64,000 bases of DNA, from the NCBI RefSeq assembly GCF_044324875.1, contig NZ_CP172185.1; one strand, written 5' to 3'. Under the pieces are notes generated by a model that worked only from the letters and a program-made list of their open reading frames with translations, did not search any database and had not been told where the DNA came from. This stretch comes from Escherichia coli (GTDB taxonomy: Bacteria > Pseudomonadota > Gammaproteobacteria > Enterobacterales > Enterobacteriaceae). This document shows, in pieces, positions 1,765 through 58,057 of the stretch; the first letter of the stretch is position 1; each line of letters begins with the position of its first letter. The position numbers and the translations under genes are program-made.

Positions 1765-2778
1765 ATGAGCGTAATTGAAACTGCAACTGTGCCGCTCGCA
1801 CAACAACAGGCTGACGCACTGCTGAACGTGAAAGATTTGCGTGTCACCTTTAGTACCCCGGACGGCGACGTCACGGCGGTCAATGATTTGAATTTTTCCC
1901 TACGTGCCGGAGAAACGCTGGGCATTGTAGGTGAGTCTGGTTCGGGTAAATCGCAAACTGCATTTGCGTTGATGGGCCTGTTGGCTGCCAACGGACGTAT
2001 TGGCGGATCGGCAACCTTCAATGGGCGTGAAATCCTCAATTTGCCAGAGCATGAACTCAATAAACTGCGCGCTGAACAAATCTCAATGATTTTTCAGGAC
2101 CCAATGACTTCGTTGAATCCCTATATGCGTGTCGGTGAGCAGTTGATGGAAGTGCTGATGCTGCATAAGAACATGAGCAAAGCTGAGGCGTTTGAAGAGT
2201 CGGTGCGGATGCTCGATGCGGTAAAAATGCCGGAAGCACGTAAACGCATGAAAATGTACCCGCATGAATTTTCTGGTGGCATGCGTCAGCGAGTCATGAT
2301 TGCGATGGCATTGCTATGTCGACCTAAGCTGCTGATTGCGGATGAACCCACTACTGCGCTGGACGTCACCGTACAGGCGCAGATCATGACGCTATTAAAT
2401 GAACTGAAGCGGGAATTTAATACCGCCATCATTATGATCACCCACGATCTTGGCGTGGTGGCGGGGATCTGCGACAAAGTGCTGGTAATGTACGCCGGGC
2501 GCACGATGGAATATGGCAATGCGCGCGATGTCTTTTATCAACCCGTTCATCCTTATTCTATCGGTTTGCTCAACGCGGTGCCGCGTCTCGATGCGGAAGG
2601 TGAAACAATGTTGACCATCCCGGGTAATCCGCCAAACTTGCTGCGATTACCGAAAGGTTGCCCGTTCCAGCCACGTTGTCCACATGCGATGGAAATTTGT
2701 AGTAGCGCACCGCCGCTGGAAGAGTTTACGCCTGGCCGTCTGCGTGCTTGCTTTAAACCGGTGGAGGAACTGTTATGA
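1765..2778 (+). CDS. oppD: oligopeptide ABC transporter ATP-binding protein OppD
   Basis: 337 aa; Walker [12 protein letters not shown] signature FSGGMRQR, Walker B LLIADEPT; 4-nt overlap with oppF. Confidence 0.95.
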   Translation: MSVIETATVPLAQQQADALLNVKDLRVTFSTPDGDVTAVNDLNFSLRAGETLGIVGESGSGKSQTAFALMGLLAANGRIGGSATFNGREILNLPEHELNKLRAEQISMIFQDPMTSLNPYMRVGEQLMEVLMLHKNMSKAEAFEESVRMLDAVKMPEARKRMKMYPHEFSGGMRQRVMIAMALLCRPKLLIADEPTTALDVTVQAQIMTLLNELKREFNTAIIMITHDLGVVAGICDKVLVMYAGRTMEYGNARDVFYQPVHPYSIGLLNAVPRLDAEGETMLTIPGNPPNLLRLPKGCPFQPRCPHAMEICSSAPPLEEFTPGRLRACFKPVEELL

Positions 2779-7537: not shown

Positions 7538-7562
7538 AACACGGTTGCAAAAACCGTGCCCT
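7538..7562 (-). terminator. yciI intrinsic terminator
   Basis: On minus strand CACGGTT-tttgc-AACCGTG followed by TTCTTGTTT. Confidence 0.5.
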
Positions 7563-7580
7563 TAAATATTGAATCTCTAT

Positions 7581-7877
7581 TCAGAACACTTTCTTAAATG
7601 GTTTCACTGAAACGTGTTCATAGACTCCTGCCGCTACGTACGGGTCAGCATCGGCCCAGGCCTGAGCTGCTTCCAGCGATTCAAATTCAGCAATAACGGT
7701 TGAGCCAGTAAATCCCGCAGCCCCTGGATCGTTACTGTCTACCGCTGGCATTGGACCAGCTGTCAACAAACGACCTTCATCATGCAGTAACTGTAAACGT
7801 GCTAAATGTGCCGGACGAACGGAAAGGCGTTTTTCGAGGCTATCAGCTTTGTCTTGAGCGTAAATAACATACAACAC
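7581..7877 (-). CDS. yciI: YciI-like protein
   Basis: 98 aa from GTG start with AGGAG SD 4 nt upstream; matches remembered YciI. Confidence 0.85.
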
Positions 7878-8032
7878 GGGCACAACTCCTTGTTCGGGAA
7901 AGTTGTAAAGTACGTTATTTGAAAGGGCGAAGATCTGCAACGGAAAGATGATGACTTTGTTAAGACCATGCATAAAGTAAGGTCAATTACGCTAAAAATG
8001 ACATTTTCACTGATCCTGATCGTCTTGCCTTA

Positions 8033-8057
8033 TTGAATATGATTGCTATTTGCATTT
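8033..8057 (+). promoter_or_regulatory. tonB promoter region with Fur-box-like sequence
   Basis: TTGAATATGATTGCTATTTGCATTT lies 45-70 nt upstream of tonB ATG; tonB is a classical Fur target; match to the Fur consensus is partial. Confidence 0.4.
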
Positions 8058-8100
8058 AAAATCGAGGCCTGGTTTTTCTACTGAAATGATTATGACTTCA

Positions 8101-8826
8101 ATGACCCTTGATTTACCTCGCCGCTTCCCCTGGCCGACGTTACTTTCGGTCTGCATTCATGGTGCTGTTGTGGCGGGTCTGCTCTATACCTCGGTACATC
8201 AGGTTATTGAACTACCTGCGCCTGCGCAGCCAATTTCTGTCACGATGGTTGCGCCTGCGGATCTCGAACCGCCACAAGCCGTTCAGCCGCCACCGGAGCC
8301 GGTGGTAGAGCCAGAACCGGAACCTGAGCCGATCCCCGAACCGCCAAAAGAAGCACCGGTGGTCATTGAAAAGCCGAAGCCGAAGCCGAAACCTAAGCCA
8401 AAACCGAAGCCGGTGAAAAAGGTACAGGAGCAGCCAAAACGCGATGTCAAACCCGTAGAGTCGCGTCCGGCATCACCGTTTGAAAATACGGCACCCGCGC
8501 GCCCGACATCAAGTACGGCAACGGCTGCAACCAGCAAGCCGGTTACCAGTGTGGCTTCAGGACCACGCGCATTAAGCCGCAATCAGCCGCAGTATCCGGC
8601 ACGAGCACAGGCATTGCGCATTGAAGGGCAGGTTAAAGTTAAATTTGATGTCACGCCGGATGGTCGCGTGGATAACGTGCAAATCCTCTCAGCCAAGCCT
8701 GCGAACATGTTTGAGCGTGAGGTGAAAAATGCGATGCGCAGATGGCGTTATGAGCCGGGTAAGCCAGGCAGTGGGATTGTGGTGAATATCCTGTTTAAAA
8801 TTAACGGCACCACCGAAATTCAGTAA
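8101..8826 (+). CDS. tonB: energy transducer TonB
   Basis: Start [11 protein letters not shown]; (EP)n and (KP)n proline-rich linker; C-terminal TonB domain; 241 aa here versus 239 aa remembered for K-12. Confidence 0.93.
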
Positions 8827-8836
8827 GCAGAAAGTC

Positions 8837-8860
8837 AAAAGCCTCCGACCGGAGGCTTTT
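8837..8860. terminator. tonB/yciA bidirectional intrinsic terminator
   Basis: AAAAGCCTCCG-acc-GGAGGCTTTT perfect hairpin with A/T tracts on both sides between convergent genes. Confidence 0.85.
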
Positions 8861-8865
8861 GATTA

Positions 8866-9264
8866 TTACTCAACAGGTAAGGCGCGAGGTTTTCCTTCAG
8901 GATCAACCGCGACATACTTAAATAATGCTTCTGTCGCTTTATAGCGTTGCCCGATGGGTTCAGACGCGACTTTTTTCACCCACACTTCAATATTAATGCT
9001 GACCGATGTCGTCCCTTTCTGGACACAGCGTGCATAGCAGCACACCACATCGCCGACCGCAACCGGCCGTAAGAAAGTCATTCCTTCAACCCGCACAGTC
9101 ACGACGCGACCGTGGGCAATTTCTTTCGCCAGAATAGCGCCGCCAATATCCATTTGTGACATTAACCAACCACCAAAGATGTCACCATTGGCATTGGTAT
9201 CGGCGGGCATGGCTAAAGTACGTAAAACAAGATCGCCCTGAGGGACGTTATGTGTTGTAGACAT
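8866..9264 (-). CDS. yciA: acyl-CoA thioesterase YciA (hotdog fold)
   Basis: 132-aa ORF matches remembered YciA. Confidence 0.92.
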   Translation of the reverse strand: MSTTHNVPQGDLVLRTLAMPADTNANGDIFGGWLMSQMDIGGAILAKEIAHGRVVTVRVEGMTFLRPVAVGDVVCCYARCVQKGTTSVSINIEVWVKKVASEPIGQRYKATEALFKYVAVDPEGKPRALPVE

Positions 9265-13432: not shown

Positions 13433-14239
13433 TTAACTGCGCGTCGCCGCTTTCATCGGTTGTACAAAAACTTTCAGTGCCACCAGCATTTTCTCTGGCT
13501 CATTAATATGTTGCTCGATGATTTTAACAATGGCTGAACCTGAAATCGCGCCTGCAGCTCCTGCATCAATCGCTGCTTTGACCTGATCCGGGGCGGAAAT
13601 ACCAAATCCCTGCAATGGAGGTGCAGCGTTGTACTCTTTCAGCTTCGCAACCAGATGATCGAGGGGTAACGCGGCGCGGTTTTCTGCGCCGGTCACGCCC
13701 GCACGTGACAATAAATAGGTGTATCCACGACCGTAGGAGGCTATCTGGCGCAGCAAATCATCGTCGGCATTCGGCGGGCAAATAAAGATAGGTGCGACAT
13801 TATGACGCAACGCGGCCTGGCGGAAGGGAGCGGACTCTTCCACTGGCACATCGGCAACCAGCACCGAATCGACGCCGACTTTCTCGCACTGGGCATAAAA
13901 CTCATCAATGCCTTTGTTAAACACCAGGTTGGCATACATCAAAAGGCCGATGGGAATGGTCGGGTGCTTCTGGCGAATCAGTGCCAGCATCTCAAAGCAC
14001 TGTGCCGGGGTCACACCTGCCGCAAAGGCACGCAGTGTGGCGTTTTGAATCGTCGGGCCATCCGCCAGTGGGTCGGAGAAGGGGATACCTAACTCCAGCG
14101 CGTCAGCACCGGCTTCAATTAGCGTGTCGATAATTTTCAGCGACTGCTCAATGCCCGGATCACCGAGCGTGACGAAAGGAACGAATGCGCCTTCTTTGCG
14201 CTCCTTCAACTGGGCAAACAGAGATTCGTAGCGTTCCAT
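13433..14239 (-). CDS. trpA: tryptophan synthase alpha subunit
   Basis: 268 aa [12 protein letters not shown]...; 1-nt overlap with trpB. Confidence 0.97.
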
Positions 14240-15432
14240 CAGATTTCCCCTCGTGCTTTCAAAATATCGTGAACGGTGAAGATGTCTTTATCGCCGCGAC
14301 CGGAAAGGTTAACCACCAGTAGCTGCTCTTTTTCCGGGTTTTCGCGCATCATTTTCAGCGCATGGGCCAGGGCGTGGGAGGATTCTAGCGCCGGGATGAT
14401 CCCTTCGTGCAGGCACAGCGTTTTGAAGGCTTCCAGTGCTTCATCATCGGTAATTGACACGTAATCAGCGCGTCCAGTGCTGTTAAGATACGCGTGTTGT
14501 GGGCCGACAGACGGGAAATCCAGTCCGGCGGAGATGGAGTAAGATTCTTCAATCTGTCCGTCTTCGGTTTGCATCATCGGCGCTTTCATACCGAAATAGA
14601 TGCCCACGCGACCGTGTTTTAACGGTGCGCCGTGCTCGCCAGTTTCGATACCGTGACCGCCTGGTTCGACACCAATCAGGCCGACGTCGGTTTCGTTGAT
14701 AAAATCAGCAAACATGCCGATGGCATTCGAACCGCCGCCAACACAGGCGATAACCGCATCCGGCAGGCGACCTTCTCTTTCCAGAATCTGCGCTTTCGTT
14801 TCTTCGCCAATCATTCGCTGAAACTCACGCACAATGGTCGGGTAAGGATGCGGGCCAGCCGCGGTGCCCAGCATATAGTGCGCGGTTTCATAACTGCCGG
14901 ACCAGTCGCGTAGCGCCTCATTACAGGCATCTTTCAGCGTCGCGGAACCGCTATGCACCGGGATCACTTCCGCACCCATTAAGCGCATACGAAAAACGTT
15001 AGGCGACTGGCGCTCGACGTCTTTGGCACCCATATAAATGCGACATTTCAGGCCGAGCAGGGCGCTGGCAAGGGCCGACGCCACGCCATGCTGACCGGCT
15101 CCGGTTTCGGCGATGATTTCCGTTTTACCCATCCGCTTCGCCAGCAACGCCTGGCCGAGCACCTGGTTGGTTTTATGCGCGCCGCCGTGCAGCAAATCTT
15201 CGCGCTTCAGATACAGCGTGGTGTTCGTGCCAGCCGTAATGTTCTGGCATTTGGTCAGCGCGGTTGGACGCCCGGCATAGTTTTTCAGCAGGTCGTTGAA
15301 CTGAGCCTGAAATTCAGGATCTTTTTGCGCACTGACAAAAGCTTCTTCCAGCTGGCGCAGAGCAGGCATCAGGATTTGTGGCACGTACATGCCGCCAAAC
15401 TCACCAAAATAGGGGTTAAGTAATGTTGTCAT
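14239..15432 (-). CDS. trpB: tryptophan synthase beta subunit
   Basis: 397 aa; PLP-dependent fold, HGGAHKTN lysine motif. Confidence 0.97.
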
Positions 15433-16805: not shown

Positions 16806-18401
16806 TTACCCTCGTGCCGCCAGTGCGGTGACTCTGTCGTAAGCGGAACCACTGCGCAGTACCTCAAGAACGGTTTGCGCATTGGCTTGCAGATCTTCAT
16901 GGCCATGCAGGCGCATTAACATGGCGACATTCGCCGCGACGGCTGCTTCATGGGCGGCGTCGCCTTTACCTTGTAACAAGCGTGTTAAAATGTCACGGTT
17001 TTCTTCCGGTGTTCCGCCTGCCAGTTGCTCCTGGTGGTAGGGGGTCAGGCCAAAATCTTCAGCGGTCAATTGATAGCTCTTAATTTCGCCGTCATGCAGT
17101 TCGGCAACGATTGTCGGCGCGTGTAATGAAACTTCATCCATCCCGCCGCTGTGCACCACTGCCGCGCGTTGATACCCCAGCACGCGCAAGGTTTCGGCAA
17201 TCGGTAGCACCAGTTCCGGACTATAAACACCAATTAACGCCAGCGGCGGATGCGCCGGGTTAATCAATGGCCCCAGCACATTGAACAGGGTGCGGGTTTT
17301 CAGTTGCTGGCGAACCGGCATCGCGTGGCGGAATCCGGTGTGATATTTCGGCGCAAAGAGGAAACATACGCCTAACTCATCCAGCGCCTGGCGCGATTTA
17401 TCGGCGTTCATATCAAGATTAATACCGAATGCCGCCAGCAGATCCGACGAGCCGGATTTACTGGAGACGCTGCGGTTACCGTGTTTCGCCACTTTCAGCC
17501 CACAGGCCGCGGCGACAAACGCACTGGCGGTAGAAATATTGATGCTGTTGCTGCCGTCACCGCCAGTACCGACGATATCAGCAAACAGATAATCCGGGCG
17601 CGGGAACGGCGCTGCGTTTTCCAGTAGCGCGGTTGCTGCCCCGGCGATCTCGTTCGGGTGCTCACCGCGAATTTTCATGCTCACCAGCGCCGCCGCCAGT
17701 TGTTCCGGCTTCAGCTCGCCACGCACCACCGCTGAAAACAGCTGGTGACTTTCTTGTTGGCTAAGCGTCTGCGCCTGATACAGTTTTTCCAGAATCGGTT
17801 GCAGCGTGTTAGTCGGTTCCAGTTTCTGCTGCGCCCAGGCCAATGTTTGTTCCAGCAGGCGAGCGCCCTGGGTAGTAAGAATGGATTCCGGATGGAACTG
17901 GAATCCACAAACGCGATCTGCATCGTGACGCACCGCCATCACCATGCCATTAAAATGGGCGTTGATGGTTAAACCGGCCGGAATGTTACTGCCAACCAGC
18001 GAGTGATAACGCGCCACTGGCAGCGGGTTTGTTAATCCGGCAAACATCGCCTGACCGTCATGTTCAATGCTGGAGGCTTTACCGTGAAGAATTTCGCCCG
18101 CCTGACCGACATACCCCCCATAAGCTTCGACAATCGCCTGATGACCGAGGCAAATGCCAATAATTGGCAGCTTGCCGCGCAGGCGGGTGAGGAGTTCCGG
18201 CATACAACCGGCTTCGCTTGGCACACCGGGGCCAGGAGAAAGCATCAGCACCGGATTGCTCATTGTCGCCAGGCGTTCAATTAAGGTCTGCGCCGGAATA
18301 TGGTTGCGGTAAATCACCACGTTATGACCATTGCTGCGCAACTGATCTGCCAGGTTGTAAGTAAAAGAGTCGATATTATCGAGCAGCAGAATGTCAGCCA
18401 T
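16806..18401 (-). CDS. trpD: anthranilate synthase component II / anthranilate phosphoribosyltransferase
   Basis: 531-aa fusion of glutamine amidotransferase (GICLGHQ) and PRT domains. Confidence 0.97.
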
Positions 18402-19963
18402 CAGAAAGTCTCCTGTGCATGGTGCGCGGTGGCGATAGCGCGCAGTACAGCGCGGGCTTTATTTCGGGTTTCGTCGGCTTCCGACTGCGGAACAGAATCA
18501 AGGACTACGCCAGCACCGGCTTGCACGGTGGCGATACCGTTTTCCACCAGCGCCGAGCGGATCACAATGCAGGTGTCGAGATCGCCATGCGCGGTGAAAT
18601 AACCTACCGCGCCGCCGTAGCTGCCGCGGCGACGACCTTCCGCCTCGGCAATTAACTGCATAGCGCGTACTTTCGGTGCACCGCTTAACGTCCCCATATT
18701 CATACAGGCGCGGTAAGCGTGCAGGGCGTCGAGATCGTGGCGCAGCTCACCGACCACGCGGGAGACCAGGTGCATCACGTAAGAGTAACGGTCAACTTTG
18801 GTGAGATCGGCGACGTAGCGGCTGCCGGGGGTGCAAATGCGCGCCAGGTCATTACGGGCGAGATCCACCAGCATCAGATGTTCAGAAAGCTCTTTATGAT
18901 CGGTACGCATTTCCAGTTCGATGCGGCTGTCGAGGTCTCTGTCCAGCGAGCCATCGGCGCGACGACCGCGCGGGCGTGTTCCGGCAATCGGGTAGATCTC
19001 AATCTGGCGGCTGGTGGCGTCATACTTGAGCGAACTTTCCGGCGACGCGCCAAACAGGGTGAAATCATTATCCTGCATAAAAAACATGTACGGGCTGGGA
19101 TTACTCTTTTTCAGCACGTAATAGGCCGCCAGCGGTGACGGGCAGGGCAGAGAGAAACGGCGAGATGGTACGACCTGGAAAATTTCTCCGGCGCGAATCG
19201 CTTTTTGCAACAAACGCACTACGCCACCGAACTCTTCATCGCTCTGGTTACATTCACAACGCATATGCGGCACGGAAACCACCGGCAGCGGTGGCGCGGT
19301 TTCAGTCAGTTGCTGGCGAAGATCGTTCAGGCGAGCAGTGAGACGTTGTTTTTCTTCTTCATTCGGAGCAAACAGACTGGCCTGAATGCGGGTGCTTTTT
19401 TTCTGATGGTCAATCACCATCAGCGTTTCAGCGAGATAAAAACAGAAATCAGGGCAGTTATTTTCCGCTGACAGTTGCGGTAAATCTTCAAACCCCACCA
19501 CAAGGTCATAAGAGAACAGGCCGCCGAAGAACATTGCTTCTCGTTCTTCCTTCGGTACATGCAACAGATTCTGTAATAAGCGGAAAGCGTCAAAAACCGA
19601 AAGGGAGCATAAGCGGGCGTCTTCATCCAGCAGTGGACTGACAGGGGGGAAGCGCAGCACACGGCAGTTTGGTGATTGTTCATTTTCCACACCCGCAGGC
19701 AGGGCGTTATCCAGTAGTGCCAGCAGGGCTTCACCATTGCCGGAAAGTGCCTGAATTGTGACCGTGTCACCTAATGCTGTAATGCGCAGCGCACTGTCTA
19801 CCAGCAGCAGGCTTTTTAAATCATCTTTGCTGTCGATATCTGCGGATTCCAGCAGCAGCGTTGCTGGACGATTCCCACACAACTGGTGAAAAAGCGCAGT
19901 CGGGTTGTCGCGATAAGCGCCTTCGCAGGTTAGCAGTTCAAGAGTCGGTTTTTGTGTTTGCAT
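18401..19963 (-). CDS. trpE: anthranilate synthase component I
   Basis: 520-aa [28 protein letters not shown]... Confidence 0.97.
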
Positions 19964-20236: not shown

Positions 20237-21118
20237 TTGAGCGACACGAATTACGCAGTGATTTACGACCTGCACAGCCATACCACAGCTTCCGATGGCT
20301 GCCTGACGCCAGAAGCATTGGTGCACCGTGCAGTCGAGATGCGCGTCGGCACCCTGGCGATCACCGACCATGACACCACAGCTGCAATCGCGCCAGCAAG
20401 AGAGGAAATTTCACGTTCGGGACTGGCGCTGAATCTTATTCCCGGCGTGGAAATTTCCACGGTCTGGGAAAATCATGAAATTCATATTGTCGGGCTGAAT
20501 ATTGATATTACTCATCCGCTAATGTGTGAGTTCCTCGCGCAGCAGACAGAACGGCGCAATCAGCGGGCGCAGCTGATTGCCGAAAGACTTGAAAAAGCGC
20601 AAATACCAGGTGCGCTGGAAGGCGCGCAACGACTGGCGCAGGGCGGTGCGGTGACGCGCGGTCATTTTGCGCGTTTCCTTGTGGAGTGCGGCAAAGCCAG
20701 TTCAATGGCGGATGTCTTTAAAAAATATCTGGCGCGCGGGAAAACCGGATACGTTCCGCCACAGTGGTGTACAATAGAACAAGCTATTGATGTCATTCAT
20801 CATTCTGGCGGTAAGGCGGTGCTAGCTCATCCTGGGCGGTACAATCTTAGTGCTAAATGGCTGAAAAGATTGGTTGCGCATTTTGCTGAACACCACGGCG
20901 ACGCGATGGAAGTCGCGCAGTGCCAGCAATCGCCCAATGAACGCACCCAGCTGGCGACACTTGCGCGTCAGCATCATTTATGGGCATCACAAGGATCTGA
21001 TTTTCATCAGCCATGCCCGTGGATCGAACTGGGTCGTAAACTCTGGCTGCCCGCAGGCGTTGAAGGCGTCTGGCAGCTATGGGAACAGCCGCAGAACACC
21101 ACAGAGAGGGAATTATGA
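20237..21118 (+). CDS. yciV: PHP-domain 5'-3' exoribonuclease (RNase AM; YciV/TrpH)
   Basis: 293 aa from TTG start; HSHT...DG and ITDHD PHP motifs. Confidence 0.9.
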   Translation: MSDTNYAVIYDLHSHTTASDGCLTPEALVHRAVEMRVGTLAITDHDTTAAIAPAREEISRSGLALNLIPGVEISTVWENHEIHIVGLNIDITHPLMCEFLAQQTERRNQRAQLIAERLEKAQIPGALEGAQRLAQGGAVTRGHFARFLVECGKASSMADVFKKYLARGKTGYVPPQWCTIEQAIDVIHHSGGKAVLAHPGRYNLSAKWLKRLVAHFAEHHGDAMEVAQCQQSPNERTQLATLARQHHLWASQGSDFHQPCPWIELGRKLWLPAGVEGVWQLWEQPQNTTEREL

Positions 21119-23868: not shown

Positions 23869-24744
23869 ATGAGCGAAAAGCTACAGAAAGTGCTGGCGCG
23901 TGCCGGCCACGGCTCTCGCCGTGAAATCGAATCTATTATTGAAGCCGGTCGTGTGAGTGTTGATGGCAAAATTGCTAAACTCGGCGATCGCGTTGAAATT
24001 ACCCCTGGATTGAAAATCCGTATCGATGGTCACCTGATTTCGGTACGTGAGTCCGCTGAACAAATTTGTCGCGTTCTGGCCTATTACAAACCGGAAGGTG
24101 AGTTGTGTACCCGTAACGATCCGGAAGGGCGTCCAACGGTGTTTGACCGTCTGCCAAAGCTGCGTGGCGCACGCTGGATTGCCGTGGGTCGCCTGGACGT
24201 TAATACCTGTGGTCTGCTGCTGTTCACTACCGACGGTGAACTGGCAAACCGTTTAATGCATCCAAGCCGTGAAGTTGAACGTGAATATGCCGTGCGTGTA
24301 TTTGGTCAGGTTGACGACGCGAAACTGCGTGATTTGAGTCGTGGCGTGCAGCTGGAAGATGGTCCGGCAGCCTTTAAAACCATCAAGTTCAGCGGCGGCG
24401 AAGGGATCAACCAGTGGTACAACGTAACTCTGACCGAAGGCCGTAACCGTGAAGTTCGTCGTCTTTGGGAAGCGGTTGGTGTGCAGGTAAGCCGCCTGAT
24501 CCGTGTTCGTTACGGTGATATCCCACTGCCGAAAGGTCTGCCACGCGGTGGCTGGACGGAGCTGGACCTCGCCCAGACTAACTATCTACGCGAACTGGTG
24601 GAGCTACCGCCAGAAACCAGCTCTAAAGTCGCTGTAGAAAAAGACCGTCGTCGTATGAAGGCGAATCAGATTCGTCGAGCGGTTAAGCGTCACAGTCAGG
24701 TGAGCGGCGGTCGTCGTTCTGGTGGACGTAATAATAACGGTTAA
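23869..24744 (+). CDS. rluB: 23S rRNA pseudouridine synthase B
   Basis: 291 aa; S4 domain plus RsuA-family catalytic core, Arg/Gly-rich C-terminus. Confidence 0.93.
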
Positions 24745-24763
24745 TTTAAGATAAGTATAAAAT

Positions 24764-24787
24764 AAAGGCCCTGCGGGGCCTTTTCTT
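24764..24787 (+). terminator. rluB intrinsic terminator
   Basis: AGGCCC-tgcg-GGGCCT hairpin followed by TTTTCTT 20 nt after rluB stop. Confidence 0.75.
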
Positions 24788-24913
24788 CATTTGAAGCATG
24801 ATAAATAGTCGCAGTATTTTAATTTAATTTCATACTTGCTTATGAATAATACCCGGAAATAGCCACATTACTATTTAATTATCTGAGATAAACTCAACGT
24901 CAAGAGGTGGGTT

Positions 24914-25936
24914 ATGATTAGATATAGTGGAATATTTCTATCGCTGTTAATGCTTTCAGGTTGTGCAACTGAAGCATTGAAAAACGAACAAGCTGAAACT
25001 GTTATTACTGCGGGTAACAAAGCAGTAGCGGCGAATGCAAGTTTCTTTAAACAATACTATGCTTCTCGTGAAAACTTCCTTGTTAATTTTTATGCGACTA
25101 ATCCGGATTGTGCACCTCGACCAGATTATGAGGTAGTTATTGAAAACAGTACCAGTGATGAGTCATTATGTCAGCAACCTGGAGATAAGCACAAAAAATC
25201 TCAAGAAGATCTTTTTATTACAAAGATAGTCGCTACTGAAAAAGAAAGATTGCTGGCTTCTATGGAAATCATTAGCAGTATGAGTTCTTATGTCGAACTT
25301 TTGAATGAGGATTTAGATGTTAAAGACAGCAAACAGTTCATATTGCTTAAACAAGCTCTGGATCACGCGAATAATGCGGGGGCACTTCTGGGCATCAATG
25401 ATGGTGGAACATTAACAAAATCTGCAGCAGCGGTTAAAGATTTAGTGGTTTATTTCAATGGGTTGTATAATACAAGGGTAAGCGCAGGGAATATAGGTAG
25501 TACGGTAAATAATCATTGGCAAAGAATAAAAAATGATCTAACTGATATACGAAACGATATCGCGACAAAAGGTAAACAAACTGGAAGAAATACCTTTGCG
25601 ACGGTACATAATAATCTCGTTTATTACAATGCCTCCTTAAAAAAAGGAGGAGGTAATGAATTTAAGACATTGAAGAGCAGACAAGAATTCCTGGCTGCGA
25701 TTATCAGTATTAATGAAACACGTCTTCGTGCAGCAGATCCAGCTATTCCAGCAATACAAGCACTGAACTCATTTCTTGACGAGGGGAATCACCTTAAGGA
25801 TTTATACACTAATAAAATACGCACAGCGGCTGAACAAAAAAGGCTAAATGAAATATTACGCGCACAGGTCATTAGTGGGTTAAAGGCGTCTGAGGGGCTG
25901 GCAAAACTACTTATTGCCAGCGGAATAATGTTATAG
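24914..25936 (+). CDS. predicted lipoprotein of unknown function (340 aa; AT-rich accessory gene absent from K-12 order)
   Basis: SD AAGAGGTG 6 nt before ATG; signal peptide MIRYSGIFLSLLMLSGC with lipobox L-S-G-C, +2 Ala; AT-rich codon usage; no family recognised. Confidence 0.75.
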   Translation: MIRYSGIFLSLLMLSGCATEALKNEQAETVITAGNKAVAANASFFKQYYASRENFLVNFYATNPDCAPRPDYEVVIENSTSDESLCQQPGDKHKKSQEDLFITKIVATEKERLLASMEIISSMSSYVELLNEDLDVKDSKQFILLKQALDHANNAGALLGINDGGTLTKSAAAVKDLVVYFNGLYNTRVSAGNIGSTVNNHWQRIKNDLTDIRNDIATKGKQTGRNTFATVHNNLVYYNASLKKGGGNEFKTLKSRQEFLAAIISINETRLRAADPAIPAIQALNSFLDEGNHLKDLYTNKIRTAAEQKRLNEILRAQVISGLKASEGLAKLLIASGIML

Positions 25937-25948
25937 GAGGGGCTTTTT

Positions 25949-26257
25949 ATGAACGATGTACAAAACCGTAGAATATTGGCATTACTTGATATGCTGTATA
26001 ATACTCTGGGCAACAAAACCACATGCAAGGTTTGTCATAAATATTTTATCCTTATCCTCACGGTGATGAACAATCTGACGATTAACTACGGTACTGAAAC
26101 TTCGCCAGAGTTAAGCGGAATCAGTTATGAAGATGCCAATGCGTTAATTACTGAACTGATATTATTTATTGAAGATGTTGACGCTGAGAATCATGAAGCA
26201 TATCCGGGACATTTGAATGAGATTAAACGGATTCTGAGTTTTGCTATTGCCGCTTGA
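25949..26257 (+). CDS. small hypothetical protein (102 aa) co-transcribed with upstream lipoprotein
   Basis: SD TAGGAGG overlaps stop of upstream ORF, ATG 12 nt downstream; no signal peptide; CKVCH motif, acidic C-terminal half; AT-rich. Confidence 0.65.
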   Translation: MNDVQNRRILALLDMLYNTLGNKTTCKVCHKYFILILTVMNNLTINYGTETSPELSGISYEDANALITELILFIEDVDAENHEAYPGHLNEIKRILSFAIAA

Positions 26258-26271
26258 ATATAATTATGATT

Positions 26272-26306
26272 AAAGCACCTCAAGAGGCGATCTTTTGAGG
26301 TGCTTT
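26272..26306. terminator. perfect 12-bp stem hairpin abutting btuR stop (bidirectional terminator candidate)
   Basis: AAAGCACCTCAA-gaggcgatctt-TTGAGGTGCTTT read directly; lies between the small ORF and convergent btuR. Confidence 0.65.
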
Positions 26307-26309
26307 CAC

Positions 26310-26900
26310 TTAATAATCAATCCCTATTTGCGCCTTAACACCGGCATCAAACGCATGTTTGATGGGGCGCAGCTCACTTACCGTATCCGCCAATTCAAGA
26401 ATATCCCGATGACAACCACGACCCGTGATAATCACCGTCTGTTGATGTGGACGTTCATTTAACGCCTGCACCACTTCTTCCAGTGGCAAATAGTCATACG
26501 CCACCATATACGTCAGTTCATCGAGCAAAACCATATCCAGTGAAGGATTGGCAAGCATCCGCTTTGCATGTTGCCAGACTTCGCGACAGGCGGCGGTATC
26601 AGACTCGCGGTTTTGTGTATCCCAGGTAAAGCCCGTTGCCATCACCTGAAATTCAACGCCGTGTGGTTCCAGCAGATTTCGTTCGCCATTAGGCCAGGTG
26701 CCTTTAATAAACTGCACGACGCCCACTTTTTTTCCGTGACCAACTGCGCGTGTTGCCGTACCAAATGCCGCGGTGGTTTTGCCTTTTCCATTGCCGGTAA
26801 AGACGATGATAATACCGCGTTCATCCTGGGCCTGGGCCACACGAGCATCGACTTTTTCTTTCACTCGCTGCTGACGCTGTTGGTAGCGTTCATCACTCAT
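26310..26900 (-). CDS. btuR: cob(I)alamin/cobinamide ATP:corrinoid adenosyltransferase
   Basis: 196 aa; P-loop GNGKGKTTAAFG; 4-nt overlap with yciK. Confidence 0.93.
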   Translation of the reverse strand: MSDERYQQRQQRVKEKVDARVAQAQDERGIIIVFTGNGKGKTTAAFGTATRAVGHGKKVGVVQFIKGTWPNGERNLLEPHGVEFQVMATGFTWDTQNRESDTAACREVWQHAKRMLANPSLDMVLLDELTYMVAYDYLPLEEVVQALNERPHQQTVIITGRGCHRDILELADTVSELRPIKHAFDAGVKAQIGIDY

Positions 26901-40462: not shown

Positions 40463-41200
40463 ATGACGTTAACTGCTTCATCTTCTTCCCGCGCTGTTAC
40501 GAATTCTCCTGTGGTTGTTGCCCTTGATTATCATAATCGTGATGCCGCGCTGGCCTTTGTCGACAAGATCGACCCACGCGATTGTCGTCTGAAAGTCGGC
40601 AAAGAGATGTTTACGCTGTTTGGACCTCAATTTGTACGCGAACTTCAACAGCGTGGTTTTGATATCTTCCTCGACCTGAAATTTCACGATATTCCCAACA
40701 CTGCAGCGCACGCTGTCGCTGCTGCAGCTGACTTAGGCGTGTGGATGGTGAATGTTCACGCCTCCGGTGGGGCGCGTATGATGACCGCAGCGCGTGAGGC
40801 ACTGGTTCCGTTTGGCAAAGATGCACCGCTTTTGATTGCTGTGACAGTGTTGACCAGCATGGAAGCCAGCGACCTGGCCGATCTTGGCGTGACACTGTCA
40901 CCTGCAGATTATGCAGAACGTCTGGCGGCACTGACGCAAAAATGTGGCCTTGATGGTGTGGTGTGTTCTGCTCAGGAAGCTGTGCGCTTTAAACAGGTAT
41001 TCGGTCAGGAGTTCAAACTGGTTACACCGGGCATTCGTCCGCAGGGGAGTGAAGCAGGTGACCAGCGCCGCATTATGACGCCAGAACAGGCGTTGGCGGC
41101 TGGTGTTGATTATATGGTGATTGGTCGCCCGGTAACGCAATCGGTAGATCCAGCGCAGACGCTGAAAGCGATCAACGCCTCTTTACAGCGGAGTGCATGA
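40463..41200 (+). CDS. pyrF: orotidine-5'-phosphate decarboxylase
   Basis: 245 aa from [12 protein letters not shown]; DxKxxD active-site motif ([12 protein letters not shown]). Confidence 0.95.
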
Positions 41201-41526
41201 TGAGTGATTCCAACAGCCGTCTGGTCTACTCAACAGAAACCGGGCGTATTGATGAGCCCAAAGCGGCCCCAGTACGCCCTAAAGGCGATGGTGTGGTGCG
41301 TATTCAGCGTCAGACCAGTGGACGTAAAGGTAAGGGCGTTTGCTTGATTACCGGTGTCGATCTCGATGATGCCGAACTGACAAAACTGGCAGCGGAACTG
41401 AAGAAAAAATGCGGCTGCGGCGGGGCAGTTAAAGATGGAATTATTGAAATCCAGGGCGATAAGCGTGATTTATTAAAATCACTGCTTGAAGCGAAAGGGA
41501 TGAAGGTAAAACTCGCAGGCGGTTAA
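41200..41526 (+). CDS. yciH: SUI1/eIF1-like translation factor YciH
   Basis: 108 aa; ATG overlaps pyrF stop (ATGATGA). Confidence 0.9.
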   Translation: MSDSNSRLVYSTETGRIDEPKAAPVRPKGDGVVRIQRQTSGRKGKGVCLITGVDLDDAELTKLAAELKKKCGCGGAVKDGIIEIQGDKRDLLKSLLEAKGMKVKLAGG

Positions 41527-49579: not shown

Positions 49580-49743
49580 AGCTTTAATCCTTATTGTTGA
49601 TGCTTGTTGTGCCTGAAAATCAGGCGATTCGTCGTTTTAGTAAACAGTACGAACAGATAAACGGTTATTATAATCAACCTGGCTGTGGGTGGCTATAGTT
49701 GCCAGGTCCGACCGGAGCAGGGTGCGGGCAGGGTGGGCGCTTT

Positions 49744-50000
49744 TCCCCTCACCCTAACCCTCTCCCCAGAGGGGCGAGGGGACCGTATTGTGCAAATATT
49801 GTCACCCCAGCAACAAACAGGCTTATACAGCCCCCTAACCCTTTCAGGGCGATGGCTGGGGTGAGAGTGAATGGTGGTTCAGACCTTGCCGAATATTCTT
49901 CATCATCCGCCTCCATGTTTTCACCACAACAGCTATTCGGCTCGGTCGGCCCCCTCGCCCTTTCAGGGAGAGGGTTGGGGTGAGGGTGACAGGCGGTTCA
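49744..50000. repeat. cluster of three GC-rich imperfect-palindrome repeat units (copies at ~49744-49785, ~49831-49882, ~49950-50000)
   Basis: Shared core CCCCCT(a/c)(a/g)CCCTTTCAGGG(c/a)GA(t/g)GG(c/t)TGGGGTGAG(a/g)GTGA; copy 1 inverted relative to copies 2-3; each self-complementary. Confidence 0.75.
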
Positions 50001-50395: not shown

Positions 50396-51202
50396 TTAAC
50401 GATCTTTACGCCACGCATCCGCCGTCAATGCCTCGCCAAAATGACCGGCAATAAGCCGTTTGGTGAGTTCATGCAGCGGCGATGCCAGCACATCGGCGGT
50501 GCTGCCTCGCTCGACAACCTCGCCCTGATGCATCACCAGCACCTGGTCGCTAATATGCTTCATCATTCCGATATGCTGGGTGACATAAATATACGAAATG
50601 CCCTGTTTTTCCTGTAACTCCAGCATCAGATTAATCAACTGCGAACGCATCGACATATCCAGTGAGGCGAGGGCTTCATCGGCAATAATGACTTTTGGGC
50701 GCAATATCAGCGCGCGCGCCAGCCCCAGACGCTGTTTTTGCCCGGGTGCCAACATATGCGGATAGTAACTGACGTGATCCGGTAGCAGCCCAACCATACG
50801 CATCGTTTCAATAATCTGTTTGCGACGCTGTTCCGGTTCCAGATCGGTGTTCAGACGCAGTGGAAAATCCAGTATTTGCGAGATACGTTGACGGGGATTC
50901 AACGATGTCGAAGGATCCTGAAAAATCATGCGAATACGCTGACTACGGAAGGAATAATCGCCAAAATGCAGCGGATGATCGTCAATCAATAACTCGCCGC
51001 TGGTAGGTTCTATCATTCCCGCCAGCATTTTTGCCAGCGTGGATTTACCCGAACCATTCTCGCCAATAATCGCCAGTGTCTGGCCTTCACGTAGCGTAAA
51101 GCTCAAGGGTTTTACCGCTTCTACGGTCTGACGACGAAACCAACCGGTCCGGTAGCGGAACGTTTTACTTAAATTACGCACTTCAAGCAGCGTTTCGATC
51201 AT
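50396..51202 (-). CDS. sapF: peptide/putrescine ABC transporter ATP-binding protein SapF
   Basis: 268 aa; Walker A GENGSGKS, signature LAPGQKQR. Confidence 0.95.
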   Translation of the reverse strand: MIETLLEVRNLSKTFRYRTGWFRRQTVEAVKPLSFTLREGQTLAIIGENGSGKSTLAKMLAGMIEPTSGELLIDDHPLHFGDYSFRSQRIRMIFQDPSTSLNPRQRISQILDFPLRLNTDLEPEQRRKQIIETMRMVGLLPDHVSYYPHMLAPGQKQRLGLARALILRPKVIIADEALASLDMSMRSQLINLMLELQEKQGISYIYVTQHIGMMKHISDQVLVMHQGEVVERGSTADVLASPLHELTKRLIAGHFGEALTADAWRKDR

Positions 51203-51203
51203 C

Positions 51204-52196
51204 TCACTCTTTCTCCATGTTCAGCGGGAAATGACAGGCATAGAGATGATTTTTCGCCCCCGTCAAACGTGGCGTCACAATGCATTCTCGTTGTGCATAC
51301 GGGCAACGCGGCCCCAGACGACACCCAATCGGTAACTGTTCCAGCAGTGGGATAGCGCCGGGCAGCGTATTGAGGCGACTTTTATGCGGCATCGCGCTGC
51401 CGAAGTCTGGTATCGCGCGGATCAGCGCCTGGGTATAAGGATGATGTGGCATCGTCACCAACTCCTTACTCGGCGCGGTTTCCACCGTTTGACCGCAGTA
51501 AAGCACGTTAATTTTATCCGCCCATTGGCTAAGCATTTGTAAGTCATGGCTGATAAGCAAAATAGTGGTATTGCTGTTTTGGTTGAGACGCGTCAGGAGG
51601 CGAAAGATTTGCGCCTGGGTTGTTGGCTCCATTGAGTTTGTCGGTTCGTCAGCAATCAGCAGACGCGGTTGATTCGCCAGTGCAATGGCTATCATCACTT
51701 TCTGACATTCACCTTCGGTCAACTCATAGGGAAAACTGCGCATCGCATCTTTGTGATCTTTAATCCCCACGCGGTGCAGCAGTTCAATGGCACGGCGTTT
51801 GCGCCAGCCAAAACGCTGCCACCAACGGCCTTTATAGGTCCAGGCTGGGATGTTTTGCATCAACTGGCGACCCACTCGTTCTGAAGGATCAAGACACGAC
51901 TGCGGTTCCTGGAAAATCATCGACACGTTGTGACCAACCAGCTTGCGCCGTTCGCGTGCGGAGAGACGCAGCAAATCGATATCATCAAAACGCATACGAT
52001 CAGCTGTAACACGCCAGTTATCTTTATTCACCCCACAAATTGCTTTCGCAATCAAACTTTTGCCGGAACCGGATTCGCCAACAAGACCGCGGATTTCACC
52101 TTCGGTTAAGGTCATACTTACGCGGTCGACGGCTTTAACCCACTCATCACCGGTTTTAAATTCAATGGTCAGGTTACGAATATCGAGTAATGGCAT
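51204..52196 (-). CDS. sapD: ABC transporter ATP-binding protein SapD
   Basis: 330 aa; Walker A GESGSGKS. Confidence 0.95.
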
Positions 52197-53086
52197 TATT
52201 CCACCCCCGCAATAATTGCACGACGGACACCGTCGCCAAGGAGGTTAACCAACAGCACGCTAATCATAATTGCCGCACCTGGCAGCATGACAGTCCACGG
52301 AGCGACATAAATCAGTTCCAGCGCATCACCGAGCATCGCTCCCCATTCAGGTGAGGGGAGTTGTGCGCCGAGATCGAGAAAGCCCAGCGCGGCGATATCG
52401 AGAATTGCCATCGACAGTGCGCGGGTGATCTCGGTGACCAGCCCGGCGGTGATGTTTGGCATCACAGCAAACCAGAGAATATTCAGCGTTGATGCGCCAT
52501 CCAGACGGGCGGCGATAACGTACTCTTTTTCCAGTTCGTCATGCACCATGCTGTAAATCGAACGTACCATACGAGGCAGCAGCGCCAGCCAGACGGCAAA
52601 CATGGCGTGAGACAAACTCGGCCCGGCAAACGCTACAACGATAATTGCCAGCAGTAGGGAAGGGATCGCCAGTAAGGTATCCAGAATATGGTTAAGCACC
52701 GCTGAGCGTAGGCCGTGCGTCGCCCCGGCGAAGGTGCCCAGTATCAGGCCGCAGATCGTCGCGGCAAGCGTCACCACAAATGCGCCGCCTACGGTTGGCG
52801 CAGCTCCGCTCAGTAAACGGCTTAAAACATCGCGTCCGAGGTCGTCAGTCCCAAGGAAGAAAGAAACTTCGCCATAGCGCGACCATGACGGCGGCAATAA
52901 TTGATAACCGAGAAATTGCTGATCGATGCCGTAAGGCGCAAACCAGCCGCCAAAAATACACAGTACAGCCAGCCCCGCGCAGCCGTACAGGCCGACCATC
53001 GCAGAGGCGTCACTATAAAATTTGCGCCAGGCGGTACGCAGCGTGCCCGGCGGGCGCTTTTCGCTGTATACGCTATCGTAAGGCAT
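52196..53086 (-). CDS. sapC: ABC transporter permease SapC
   Basis: 296-aa membrane ORF; 14-nt overlap with sapB. Confidence 0.93.
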
Positions 53087-54038
53087 ACCATTCCTTATGT
53101 TTCAGAGGGTTAGCCATGGCACCCAAAATATCAGAAATCACGTTAACAATAATGACCAGTGAGCCACACACCATCACTCCGGCGGAAATGGCTGCGTAAT
53201 CCTGCTGGCGGATAGCGTTAATTAACCAGCGCCCTAAACCCGGCCAGCTAAAAACCATTTCGGTGATCATCGCCAGCGTCAGCATGGTAGAAAACTGTAA
53301 GCCCAGGCGAGGAATAACCGGAGGTAACGCGTTATGCAGAACGTGGCGACGCAAAATAGTAAAGCGCGACAAACCGCGGGTCGCCGCTGCTTTAACATAG
53401 TTCTGGTCATACACTTCGATAGTGCTAATACGCATCAGTCGGATCACTTCAGTTGTTGGCGCAACCGACAGGGTGATCACGGGCAATATCATATGGCGGA
53501 TTGCGCTCATGACCATTTCATCCCGCCATGGTGAGTCCGAAAGCCAGGCATCAATCAACGCAAAACCGGTAATCGGTTTCACTTCGTAGAGCAGATCGAA
53601 ACGTCCTGAAACGGGCAACCAACCTAGCGTGAGTGAACAAAACAGCGTCAACAGAAGCGCCAGCCAGAACACCGGGATTGAAAAGCCCAGTAAGGCGATG
53701 GCGTTGATCAAGTTATCCTGCCACTTATGGCGCGTAATCCCGGCAATCATCCCCACGGGGATGCCAACAATCAGCGCAAAACCGAAGGCGAGGATGCACA
53801 GTTCCATCGTCGCCGGGAAGACCTCTTTTAACTGTTCGGCAATCGGTTGACCGTTAATGCTGGAAACACCAAAATCCCAGTGGATCAGGCCATTAAACCA
53901 GAACACCCAGGCATTCCACAGTGACGCGCCTTGTAACGGCGCATGTGGGGTGAAATAGCTCAAGCTGAAGCCAACAAAGGTCAGCAGGAACAAGGTGACA
54001 ATCAATAACAAAATGCGGCGTAAGGTGAAGATAATCAT
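53073..54038 (-). CDS. sapB: ABC transporter permease SapB
   Basis: 321-aa membrane ORF; 4-nt overlap with sapA. Confidence 0.93.
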
Positions 54039-55678
54039 GGTTTTTTCACCTCATCCTGTTTCTCGCGATACACCCCAGCAAAGGAGGCGTTACCAAACGG
54101 ACTAAGTACCAGACCTTTGATATCGTACCGATAGGCCTGCAAGCGCAATGACGACGCCAGCGGCAGAATGGGTAATTCCTGCGCCAGAATACTCTGCGCT
54201 TCGTCATAGGCTTCAATACGCGCCGCCAGCTGCTGCGAGGAGAGCGCCTTACGCAACACGCTGTCGAATTTCGGATCGCACCAGTGGGCGAGGTTGGTCT
54301 GCGAATGAATTGCCGCGCAGCTCAGTAACGGACGGAAGAAACTGTCCGGGTCGTTACTGTCAGTCGCCCAACCGGATAACGTCAGATCATGGCTCATATC
54401 CATCAACCGCGCCTCCTGAAAGCGACCTTCTACCGGCACAATCACCACTTTTACGCCAACCTGCGCCATATCCGCCTGAATCAGTTCGGCGGTTTTCAGT
54501 GGACTGGGGTTCCACGCCTGCGAACGTGTTGGCACCCACAGTTTCAGCGTTAAGTTTTCCAGCCCCAACGCCTTCAACTGTTCGCGCGATTTCGCCGGAT
54601 TGTATTCAGTAATTTTAGCCTCGTTGTCATAGGCCCACGAGGCGCGCGGTAAAATAGAGGCCGCCGTTTCAGCCGTACCATAATAGATGGATTGCATCAG
54701 GCGCTGGTTATTAATCGCCAGTGCCAGCGCATGGCGGACAGCGGGATTATTTAGTGGCGGTTTGGCGGTGTTAAATGCCAGATAGGCGACGTTCATCCCA
54801 GGACGCAGCGTTAAACGCAAGCGTGGGTCGTCACGCAAAATGGATAGCTGACTGGCAGCAGGCCAGGCCAGAACGTCGCACTCTCCGGTCAGGAGTTTCG
54901 ACAGACGTCCGGTACCGCCGGAGCCTAAATCCACCACCACCTGCGGCATTAACGGTTTGCCGCGCCAGAAGTCATCATGACGTTGTAGGCGAATAAATTG
55001 CCCGGCGCGGTATTCCGACAACTGATACGGTCCAGTGCCGACCGGCTGACGGTCGAGTTGTTCCTGACGATCTTCTTTCTCTAACTTCCCGGCATATTCT
55101 GCCGACATGACCGATGCATAATGGGTCGCCAGGTGCCACAAAAAAGAAGCATCCGGCTGGGCGAGTCGGAACTCAACCGTATGATTATCCAGTTTGCGGA
55201 CGCTTTTCACGTTATCGGCAAATTGCAGGCTGTCGAAGTAGGGGAAGTTGCTGCCGTTGACGTTATGCCACGGGTTGTTGCGGTCAAAAATTCGCTGGAA
55301 GGTAAACACCACATCGTCGGCATTCATTTTACGAGTGGGAGTAAACCAGTCGGTTTTTTGAAACGGAACATCGCGACGCAGGTGGAAGCGATAGGTCGCG
55401 CCGTTATCGAGAACTTCCCAGCTTTCGGCAAGTTCCGGCATCAGGCGATAGGTATAGGGATCGACATCCAGCAGTCGATCATAAAACTGGGCGGCAAGGG
55501 TATCGACAATTAACCCACTGCTCGCTTTGGATGGGTTAAAGGTGTTGACTTGCCCGCTGACGCAATAGACAAAACCGCTGTCGCGGATATCAGCATGCGG
55601 GGGGGATTCAGGCGCGGCGATTGCCTGACCACTCACAAGTCCAGCAATCACCAAAAGAGACGATAATACCTGGCGCAT
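54035..55678 (-). CDS. sapA: ABC transporter periplasmic substrate-binding protein SapA
   Basis: 547 aa; signal peptide [21 protein letters not shown]. Confidence 0.95.
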
Positions 55679-56369: not shown

Positions 56370-57755
56370 TTACGTTTCGCTCACCGGCGCTCTGTCACCA
56401 TCATACAACGGCACTTTGCGATAGCGGCGGATCAGATACCACAAATATGCGCCGCCTAACGAAGCCCATACCAGACCGAGTGTCAGTGACGTTGACTCGA
56501 GGTTAACCCACAGCACACCCACCGTCAGCGCGCCAACCAGCGGCATCAGCAAATAGTGGAAGTGATCCTTCCAGCTTTTATTCATTCCTTTACGCCGCCA
56601 GAAATGATTAAACACCGACAGATTTACGAAGGTAAATGCCACCAGAGCACCGAAGTTAATCAATGCTGTCGCGGTGACTAAATCAAAGAACAGCGCTGAC
56701 AACGCGACAATCCCGACCATAATGACGTTCAGTGCCGGAGTCCGCCATTTCGGGTGCACATAGCCAAACACGCGCTCCGGAAACACATTGTCACGCCCCA
56801 TCACATACAGCAGACGCGACACGCTGGCGTGCGACGCCAGGCCAGACGCTAACGTGTTCACAAACGTGGTACAGAGGAAAATCGACTGGAAGAGCTTGCC
56901 GCCGACGTATAGCGCAATTTCAGGCAGTGCGGCGTCCGGGTCTTTAAAGCGGCTGATATCGGGAAAGAACAGCTGCATAAAGAACGACGCAGCGATAAAG
57001 ATAACGCCGCCGTATACCGCCGTCAGGAAGATGGCTTTCGGGATCACGCGTGCGGCGTACGGCGTCTCTTCCGAAAGCGTGGTCACCGCATCGAAACCGA
57101 GGAAGGAGAAACAGACAATCGTCGCCCCGGTAATAATCGGGATCAGGTGCGCGTTCTCGCTGATAAACGGCTGAAGTGACCAGACGGTGCCAACGCCTTC
57201 TCCTTTATGCAGTCCCTGAACCACCAGGAAGATAAACACCACCATGATGGAGATTTGCACCAGTACAAACAGGGTATTGAAGTTAGCAACCAGGTTGACG
57301 CTCTTCAGATTCGCGGCGGTTAAAATGGCGACGAAGGTTACCACCCACACCCACGGCGGCACTTCCGGGAAGAGGGCGGAGAGATAGATTTTCGCCAATA
57401 AAACGTTGATCATTGGCAAAAAGAGATAATCCAGCAGCGATGACCAGCCGACCATAAATCCGACGTGCGGGTTAATCGACTTTTGCGCGTAGGTATAGGC
57501 CGAACCGGCTTCCGGAAACTGGCGAACCAGTTTGCCGTAGCTGATAGCGGTAAACAGCACGCCCGCCAGCGCCAGCAAATAGGACGCCGGAACGTGACCG
57601 TCGCTAATGCCGGAGACAATACCAAAAGTATCAAATACGGTCATCGGCGTGAGATAGGCCAGACCCATCATCACCACCTGCCACAATTTCAGTGATTTTC
57701 GCAGACGGGTTTTGCCAGATTGCGCAGCAATAGTTAGTGGTGAATTAATAGCCAT
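56370..57755 (-). CDS. puuP: putrescine importer PuuP (APC family)
   Basis: 461 aa from [15 protein letters not shown]; 12-TM amino-acid/polyamine permease. Confidence 0.93.
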
Positions 57756-58057
57756 AATTGCTGCCTCCCCTGCGTAATAAGGTTTGCGGTCGTGTCGACC
57801 TGAAATCAAACCTGTTTAGCAAGGGAAGCAAAGGGGGCGGAGTCCAGTCAGTAGCAGGAGGGGCGCATACGCAGCCTCCCTCGCCATGCGGGGATTTAAT
57901 CATCGGCATCATCTCATTTCCTCGTCACAGTCTTAATCGTTAACGGAAGCCCGTTGCCGCCTGCGCTCCATAACGCGACATCCGGAAAATGTCTGGATTA
58001 CCAGCAAATGTCAGGCCTGGCTCCGCTCAGGCCGATGAAACAACCCCGCAAGGGGTA

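Follow-up and report, generated by a model that had tools for sequence, protein, structure and literature searches.

Tight gene junctions in the opp, trp and sap operons of an Escherichia coli chromosome segment and conservation of the 14-nt sapB/sapC overlap

A gene can be translated more efficiently when a closely spaced gene upstream of it is itself translated (PMC12548453). Such coupling was first shown for trpE/trpD of Escherichia coli by Oppenheim and Yanofsky, and trpB/trpA coupling was studied by Das and Yanofsky in 1989 on trpB'-trpA (both cited in PMC12548453). Coupling efficiency is best at spacings between -4 and +3 nt (overlaps are given as negative numbers), and a longer overlap weakens coupling faster than a longer separation does (PMC12548453). 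In the synthetic constructs of Tian and Salis, as summarized in the same review, coupling falls progressively from -4 to -25 nt, and one systematic study saw none at -25 nt (PMC12548453). Spacings of -4, -1 and -8 are enriched across prokaryotes (PMC12548453, PMC10666635). Genome-wide, 707 of 2,987 E. coli gene pairs (24%) lie within -8 to +6 nt, and a small further peak is found at +10/11 (PMC10666635). Subunits of one complex account for 30.4% of the E. coli pairs spaced at -8 to +10 nt, compared with 6.8% once the distance exceeds 20 nt, and are 4.5-fold enriched among tight spacings (PMC10666635).

Long overlaps are about four-fold rarer than short ones, and those belonging to the -8/-11/-14 series are several-fold commoner than those in the other phase, because a single mutation cannot shorten such an overlap to -4 or -1 (PMC10666635). 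For K-12, supplementary file 3 of Huber et al. 2023 lists spacings of -4 for sapA/sapB, -14 for sapB/sapC, -1 for sapC/sapD and +1 for sapD/sapF, together with -1 for trpE/trpD, 0 for trpD/trpC and +11 for trpC/trpB; the sapB/sapC pair is flagged there as a complex pair (PMC10666635).

The DNA stretch analyzed in this work (hereafter the window) is a 64-kb segment of an E. coli-type chromosome running from oppB to puuB, with its K-12 counterpart at ~1.303–1.366 Mb. Matches covering at least 80% of its sap region were present in 5,415 of 5,426 complete E. coli genomes; the highest identity was 99.2% for this region and 98.7% for the trp region. These values point to a lineage of the E. coli group that is poorly represented by near relatives among the 5,426 complete genomes compared. 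The sap and trp spacings were the same as in the published K-12 catalogue, so that the junctions are unchanged in this other strain. The five sap genes followed the K-12 order of binding protein, two permeases and two ATPases, all five NCBIfam equivalog matches were far above the curated cut-offs, and the genes thus make up a SapABCDF operon (Table 1). The established functions of the Sap system are antimicrobial-peptide import in several pathogens and putrescine export in E. coli (PMC9629497).

A first-pass annotation had attached a claim of extensive translational coupling to positions 52196–54038, which are exactly sapC plus sapB, and had considered the overlaps as expected features of known operons, useful as a check on the gene calls by comparison with K-12. 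This expectation was borne out: coordinates, gene lengths and junction layout were those of K-12 MG1655 and of one PGAP-annotated strain, SapA to SapF were full-length, and no frameshift was found in the window sequence at any junction or in any gene.

Table 1 Positions of sap genes, sapC start signal and tight gene junctions in the window.
Feature	Position	Strand	Spacing (nt)	Sequence	Evidence and remarks
sapA, periplasmic substrate-binding protein, 547 aa	54035..55678	-			NCBIfam equivalog NF011689, 1164 bits, aligned 1-547/547; sapA in K-12 and PGAP
sapB, ABC permease, 321 aa	53073..54038	-			NCBIfam NF011690, aligned 1-321/321
sapC, ABC permease, 296 aa	52196..53086	-			NCBIfam NF011691, aligned 1-296/296
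sapD, ABC ATPase, 330 aa	51204..52196	-			NCBIfam NF011674, aligned 1-330/330
sapF, ABC ATPase, 268 aa	50396..51202	-			NCBIfam NF011692, aligned 1-268/269
Shine-Dalgarno-like site for sapC	53092..53097	-		TAAGGA	5 nt before ATG, over the His-Lys-Glu codons (caT AAG GAa) of the SapB tail
oppD stop/oppF start	2775..2778	+	-4	ATGA	Sequence; K-12 annotation
trpB stop/trpA start	14237..14241	-	-1	TGATG	Sequence
trpE stop/trpD start	18399..18403	-	-1	TGATG	Sequence
rnm (yciV/trpH) stop/yciO start	21115..21118	+	-4	ATGA	Sequence; K-12 annotation
yciK stop/btuR (cobO) start	26897..26900	-	-4	ATGA	Sequence; K-12 annotation
pyrF stop/yciH start	41197..41202	+	-1 with annotated ATG; -4 with preceding in-frame ATG	ATGATG	
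sapA stop/sapB start	54035..54038	-	-4	ATGA	SD-like GAGGTGA 7 nt upstream, within sapA
sapB stop/sapC start	53073..53086	-	-14	ATGCCTTACGATAG	Sequence
sapC stop/sapD start	52194..52198	-	-1	TAATG	Sequence
sapD stop/sapF start	51200..51206	-	+1	TGA, 1 spacer base, ATG	Sequence
trpD/trpC			0	TAAATG	
ymjE/puuP			-11		

The individual overlaps named in the first-pass annotation could all be read directly in the sequence (Table 1), namely those of 4 nt at oppD/oppF, yciV/yciO and sapA/sapB, those of 1 nt at trpE/trpD and trpB/trpA, and the one at pyrF/yciH, for which the current K-12 annotation gives a spacing of -1. The 4-nt overlap given as btuR/yciK was also present, with the order reversed, as yciK is the upstream and btuR the downstream gene. 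The value of -4 for rnm/yciO holds because the annotated yciO start at 21115 is taken, which has the Shine-Dalgarno (SD) sequence GAGAGGGA; a longer open reading frame from 21079 has no SD. The junctions sapC/sapD, sapD/sapF, trpD/trpC and ymjE/puuP were absent from the earlier list and are added here. In every listed pair the two genes run in the same direction and overlap or abut, leaving no room for a terminator and a promoter between the reading frames, and an SD-like motif was present at every downstream start. Spacers of +11 were found at oppC/oppD and trpC/trpB, each with a TAAGGA(G) site, and fit the published +10/11 peak of E. coli.

Spacings were counted from the K-12 gene table for the region, which holds 42 co-directional neighboring pairs. 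Within ±14 nt lay 17 of these pairs, and 8 of the 17 were spaced at exactly -4 or -1 (P ≈ 7×10⁻⁶ against a uniform spread). The range from -8 to +6 held 12 of the 42 pairs (29%), compared with 24% genome-wide (P = 0.28). Hence, the spike at -4 and -1 is real but the density of tight junctions is ordinary for E. coli, and of the "extensive" coupling layout claimed earlier the junctions stand while the density is typical.

A 1.56-kb cassette with a G+C content of ~37% lies between rluB and btuR (~24750–26305), in place of a short hairpin-containing spacer in K-12, and is carried by only 244 of the 5,426 E. coli genomes. Its products are a 102-aa protein and a 340-aa protein whose signal sequence is of the lipoprotein type (…LLMLSGC…). 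Neither protein had a match in NCBIfam, Pfam or PADLOC; the search of both against PHROGs gave a single, non-significant match, for the 340-aa protein (E = 0.09), and the 340-aa protein had no match among PDB sequences.

We consider these sites to be ordinary junctions within polycistronic operons, with a layout tied to translational coupling, and put the probability of this reading at roughly 0.85. A ribosome ending the upstream gene would be let go on or beside the next start codon, where it could re-initiate or keep the start site open for a new ribosome, and the rates of synthesis of the two proteins would be linked. Such a layout would suit subunits of one complex, as in OppD/OppF, TrpE/TrpD, TrpB/TrpA and SapB/SapC/SapD/SapF. 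All pairs at -4, -1, 0 and +1 lie inside the range of efficient coupling (about -8 to +6/+10 nt, best from -4 to +3), whereas sapB/sapC at -14 falls outside the range of -8 to +10 used as predictive by Huber et al. (PMC10666635). The TGATG junctions of trpE/trpD and trpB/trpA are identical to those of the E. coli trp operon, and for the trp pairs no difference from the described system was seen. The other -1 and -4 pairs share this layout. Of the coupling claimed by the first-pass annotation, spatial closeness applies to all pairs, and functional dependence has been demonstrated for trpE/trpD and studied for trpB/trpA (PMC12548453); for all non-trp pairs we infer coupling from the layout.

Regulatory signals were sought both around and within these operons. 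A scan of the whole window against Rfam returned the Trp leader and STnc180 only, with no match at the junctions. A review relays from Sugiyama et al. a predicted sigma-54 promoter of E. coli sapBCDF, lying inside sapA and separate from the promoter of sapA itself (PMC9629497); if so, coupling between sapA and sapB would be limited to read-through transcripts. No match to TGGCAC-N5-TTGCW at up to 2 mismatches was found in sapA on the minus strand (54035–55678), and the 40 sigma-54-like matches in the window correspond to the chance level. The scan of the sap region for consensus promoters and terminators gave only weak matches, all inside coding sequence.

In K-12, the operons opp, dpp, nik, gsi, ddp and yej are paralogues of sap from the same peptide/nickel ABC family and have the same gene order. 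Many of their junctions are tight, with spacings of -1, -4, -1 and -4 along nikA-E, +1, -4, -4 and -8 in ddp, and 0, -1 and +1 in yej. The spacing between the two permease genes is +14 in opp, +9 in dpp, -4 in nik, +2 in gsi, -4 in ddp and -1 in yej, and is -14 in sap only. As these paralogous junctions all differ from it, the -14 spacing is a trait of the Sap lineage.

Ten further sap loci were fetched, with SapC 82% to 43% identical to that of the window. The -14 spacing of sapB/sapC recurred in five of them (L005, L006, L008, L009 and L012). Spacings of -17 (L013), -11 (L011) and -8 (L010) were found in the same relative frame, differing by whole codons, and AAGGA was kept in L005, L006, L008, L010 and L012. 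The overlap is evidently dispensable, since the orthologue in L007 has a 35-nt spacer (+35) with its own AGGAG instead. The other sap junctions drift more than sapB/sapC: in the other sap loci sapA/sapB was spaced at -4, +2, +46 or +63 and sapC/sapD at -1 in 8 of 10 loci and otherwise at -4 or +16, and sapD/sapF varied across sap loci among +1, -1, -4, -8 and +16. For the SapC-to-SapD pair of COGs, the published supplement gives a median spacing of -1 (PMC10666635).

In Klebsiella pneumoniae, sapC is directly preceded by a lambdoid prophage. Phage sequence gives way to sap sequence at the T in front of the sapC ATG, a point within the sapB/sapC overlap, and the native ribosome-binding site is replaced. 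In this species, the conserved sapB/sapC junction thus seems to be used for phage attachment.

The most serious alternative to a layout tied to coupling is that the overlaps are neutral by-products of genome compaction or easy mutation, the downstream genes starting independently at their own SD. We regard this as unlikely, although it has several points in its favor. An ATG followed by an A yields ATGA in one step, and a lost stop codon extends an upstream gene into the next one. The SD-like motif at every downstream start would serve such independent starts, and spacings do drift among the sap orthologues, at sapC/sapD and sapD/sapF and, in L007, at sapB/sapC. To our knowledge, rnm/yciO, yciK/btuR and pyrF/yciH do not encode complexes. 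Moreover, the sapC start region lacks a masking RNA structure: the 131 nt around the sapB/sapC junction had a folding energy of -30.4 kcal/mol against a shuffled mean of -34.7 (z = +1.09), indicating no stable structure. On the same value we rejected the "unfolding" model of coupling, in which RNA structure masks the sapC start; exposure of the site therefore does not require upstream translation, and independent initiation of sapC would be possible. Against a neutral origin, however, the trp pairs have been directly shown to be coupled (PMC12548453), Huber et al. found strict coupling in each of the 14 native overlapping pairs that they tested (PMC10666635), and complex subunits show the 4.5-fold enrichment among tight spacings described above (PMC10666635). 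In addition, the sapB/sapC overlap is retained, in the same frame, at protein identities as low as 43%.

The 14-nt sapB/sapC overlap reported by the first-pass annotation was found as described, yet calling it "unusually long" overstated the case. Its length (8 + 6) follows the rule of phase-1 long overlaps, which measure 8 + 3n nt and have a real start and a real stop on the two genes. This class (-8, -11, -14, -17 and so on; Huber et al. 2023) is the commoner phase and includes ymjE/puuP at -11 as well as sapB/sapC, and iaaA/gsiA of K-12 is also spaced at -14. Huber et al. 2023 treat the phase-1 class statistically, whereas the deep conservation of one -14 junction with embedded SD and start codon was observed here.

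The dual coding of this junction is visible at the level of single codons. The sapC ATG precedes the sapB stop codon by 11 nt and consists of the last two bases (AT) of a TAT codon, for a conserved Tyr of the SapB tail, and the G that opens the following sapB codon. Likewise, the conserved Lys-Glu of the SapB tail (AAG GAA) doubles as the sapC ribosome-binding site. Among the orthologue junctions, a sapB stop of TAG goes with Ser (AGC) at SapC residue 5, and a TAA stop with Asn (AAC or AAT). In the alignment, the tail after the conserved (D/N)P motif measures 4 to 10 residues in the paralogues and 10 in SapB; the SapB tail is possibly a read-through extension relative to the paralogues.

Long annotated overlaps often stem from start codons set too far upstream. 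An in-frame ATG at sapC codon 30 would allow the overlap to be a gene-calling artefact of this kind, with the true SapC start further downstream. We judged this very improbable and rejected Met30 as the start. It would drop a conserved N-terminal segment, while the NCBIfam SapC equivalog aligns over the full length of the protein (Table 1) and the N-terminal motif M-x-x-D-S/N-V-Y is kept in distant orthologues. The TAAGGA site stands 5 nt upstream of Met1. Between the upstream in-frame stop and codon 30 there is no canonical start other than Met1, and Met1 and Met30 are the only in-frame starts in the first 45 codons, with none upstream of Met1. A length of 296 aa is shared by nearly all of the full-length SapC homologues listed across genera (Klebsiella, Cedecea, Cronobacter, Buttiauxella, Mangrovibacter and Erwinia). 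The single usable start, the SD, the full-length equivalog match, the conservation across loci and the visible dual coding together indicate that the 14-nt overlap is a true feature and no artefact of gene calling.

Practically no weight was given to programmed +1 frameshifting into a fused SapB-SapC permease, and we rejected it: sapC does begin within the last codons of sapB, in the +1 frame, and a few longer SapC-containing database proteins exist (P0001, 437 aa; P0012, 408 aa), but by general knowledge of such sites GCC TTA CGA TAG holds neither a slippery nor a prfB-like shift site, each of the longer proteins is a lone sequence from a short contig and looks like an assembly error, sapB and sapC are called separately in every examined locus having both, and the paralogous systems keep separate permease genes with spacers.

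Returning to coupling as the reading of the sapB/sapC junction itself, a terminating ribosome would have to go back ~11 nt to reach the sapC start. Given the loss of coupling in synthetic overlaps, re-initiation at -14 may therefore be weak. The good SD, the lack of local RNA structure and the ~11-nt backward move suggest that SD-directed initiation would dominate: sapC would be started mainly via its own SD, in competition with, or aided by, ribosomes finishing sapB. A ribosome on the sapB stop codon necessarily covers the sapC start, so that the two events are at least mutually timed. A bolder possibility, which we hold only tentatively and think doubtful, is that sapB/sapC represents an ancient, naturally fixed coupling across a long overlap, in which the ribosome is handed back ~11 nt and the two permease halves are made 1:1.

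The overlaps described here are already known, and the trp junctions are a textbook case; our understanding of translational coupling is unchanged by them. The sole increment is that the sapB/sapC overlap, with the signals embedded in it, is conserved across species, which is a detail and no discovery. The chief value of the junctions is in quality control: the opp, trp and sap gene calls of the window are sound and the K-12 calls are transferable to it. For the sap family, start-codon "corrections" that delete the sapB/sapC overlap would be wrong. If the ribosome is indeed handed back across this overlap, sapB/sapC would be a handy natural test case for backward re-initiation, a process that synthetic constructs suggest to be inefficient.

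Besides sapB/sapC, the window holds a second long same-phase overlap, that of ymjE and puuP, which spans 11 nt (57745-57755, ATGGCTATTAA). As with sapC in the sapB/sapC overlap, the ATG of puuP is made up of a TAT codon and the following G. The features discussed here are listed in the table below.

Coordinates of the features discussed (L004, L020, L021 and L022 are loci fetched from other genomes or records and read around sapC)
Feature	Location	Strand	Remarks
Cassette ORF 1	24914..25936	+	340-aa protein, lipoprotein-type signal (MIRYSGIFLSLLMLSGC...)
Cassette ORF 2	25949..26257	+	102-aa protein
ymjE	57745..57909	-	small protein gene, identical to K-12
puuP start	57755		overlapped by ymjE
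Prophage/sapC junction	L004 3300-3520		K. pneumoniae GCA_022247585.1
Prophage next to sapC, further loci	L021; L022; L020 (MK448237.1) 6883-9137		

A lambdoid prophage with genes for a tyrosine integrase, RecT and exonuclease VIII directly adjoins sapC on its upstream side in Klebsiella pneumoniae, an arrangement present in all five of the five contigs with this Klebsiella SapC variant. Read at the sapC-side end of the prophage, the switch from phage-like to sap sequence falls within the sapB/sapC overlap, at '...aacggattca|TATGCCCTACGATAGCG'. In this arrangement sapC is cut off from sapB, and its native ribosome-binding site is gone. Among deposited prophage records from Klebsiella, at least three carry an annotated Sap-type permease gene beside the integrase; MK448237.1 was inspected, and MK416013.1, MK416022.1 and MK448234.1 were judged by their feature names.

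Between rluB and btuR/cobO the window carries a 1.56-kb cassette (24750-26305) with a G+C content of ~37%, compared with ~52% in the flanks, whereas K-12 has merely a 39-bp spacer with a hairpin at this site. The cassette has hairpins of its own at each end, and no flanking direct repeats were found around it. Neither of its two proteins gave a match in NCBIfam, Pfam or PADLOC, and the PHROGs search returned a single, non-significant match for the 340-aa protein (E = 0.09), for which no match was found among PDB sequences either. Just 244 of the 5,426 complete E. coli genomes carry the cassette, and in these both genes bear the PGAP label 'hypothetical protein'.

Small length differences from K-12 were also seen. 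Judged from coordinate offsets, the fabI–sapF interval, which includes the fabI-ycjD spacer (49580-49962), differs by ~28 bp, and several differences of 1-6 bp occur elsewhere. The ycjD ORF has 121 aa in the window, following the PGAP call, vs 117 aa in the K-12 annotation.

Two genomes, NZ_OZ547043.1 and NZ_CM192120.1, match the segment containing the cassette (24600-26400) at 100% identity. In contrast, the highest identity reached among the 5,426 complete genomes is merely 98.7% for the trp region and 99.2% for the sap region. Taken together, these sequence identities indicate that the window represents either an E. coli-group lineage that is scarcely represented among the 5,426 genomes or a mosaic.
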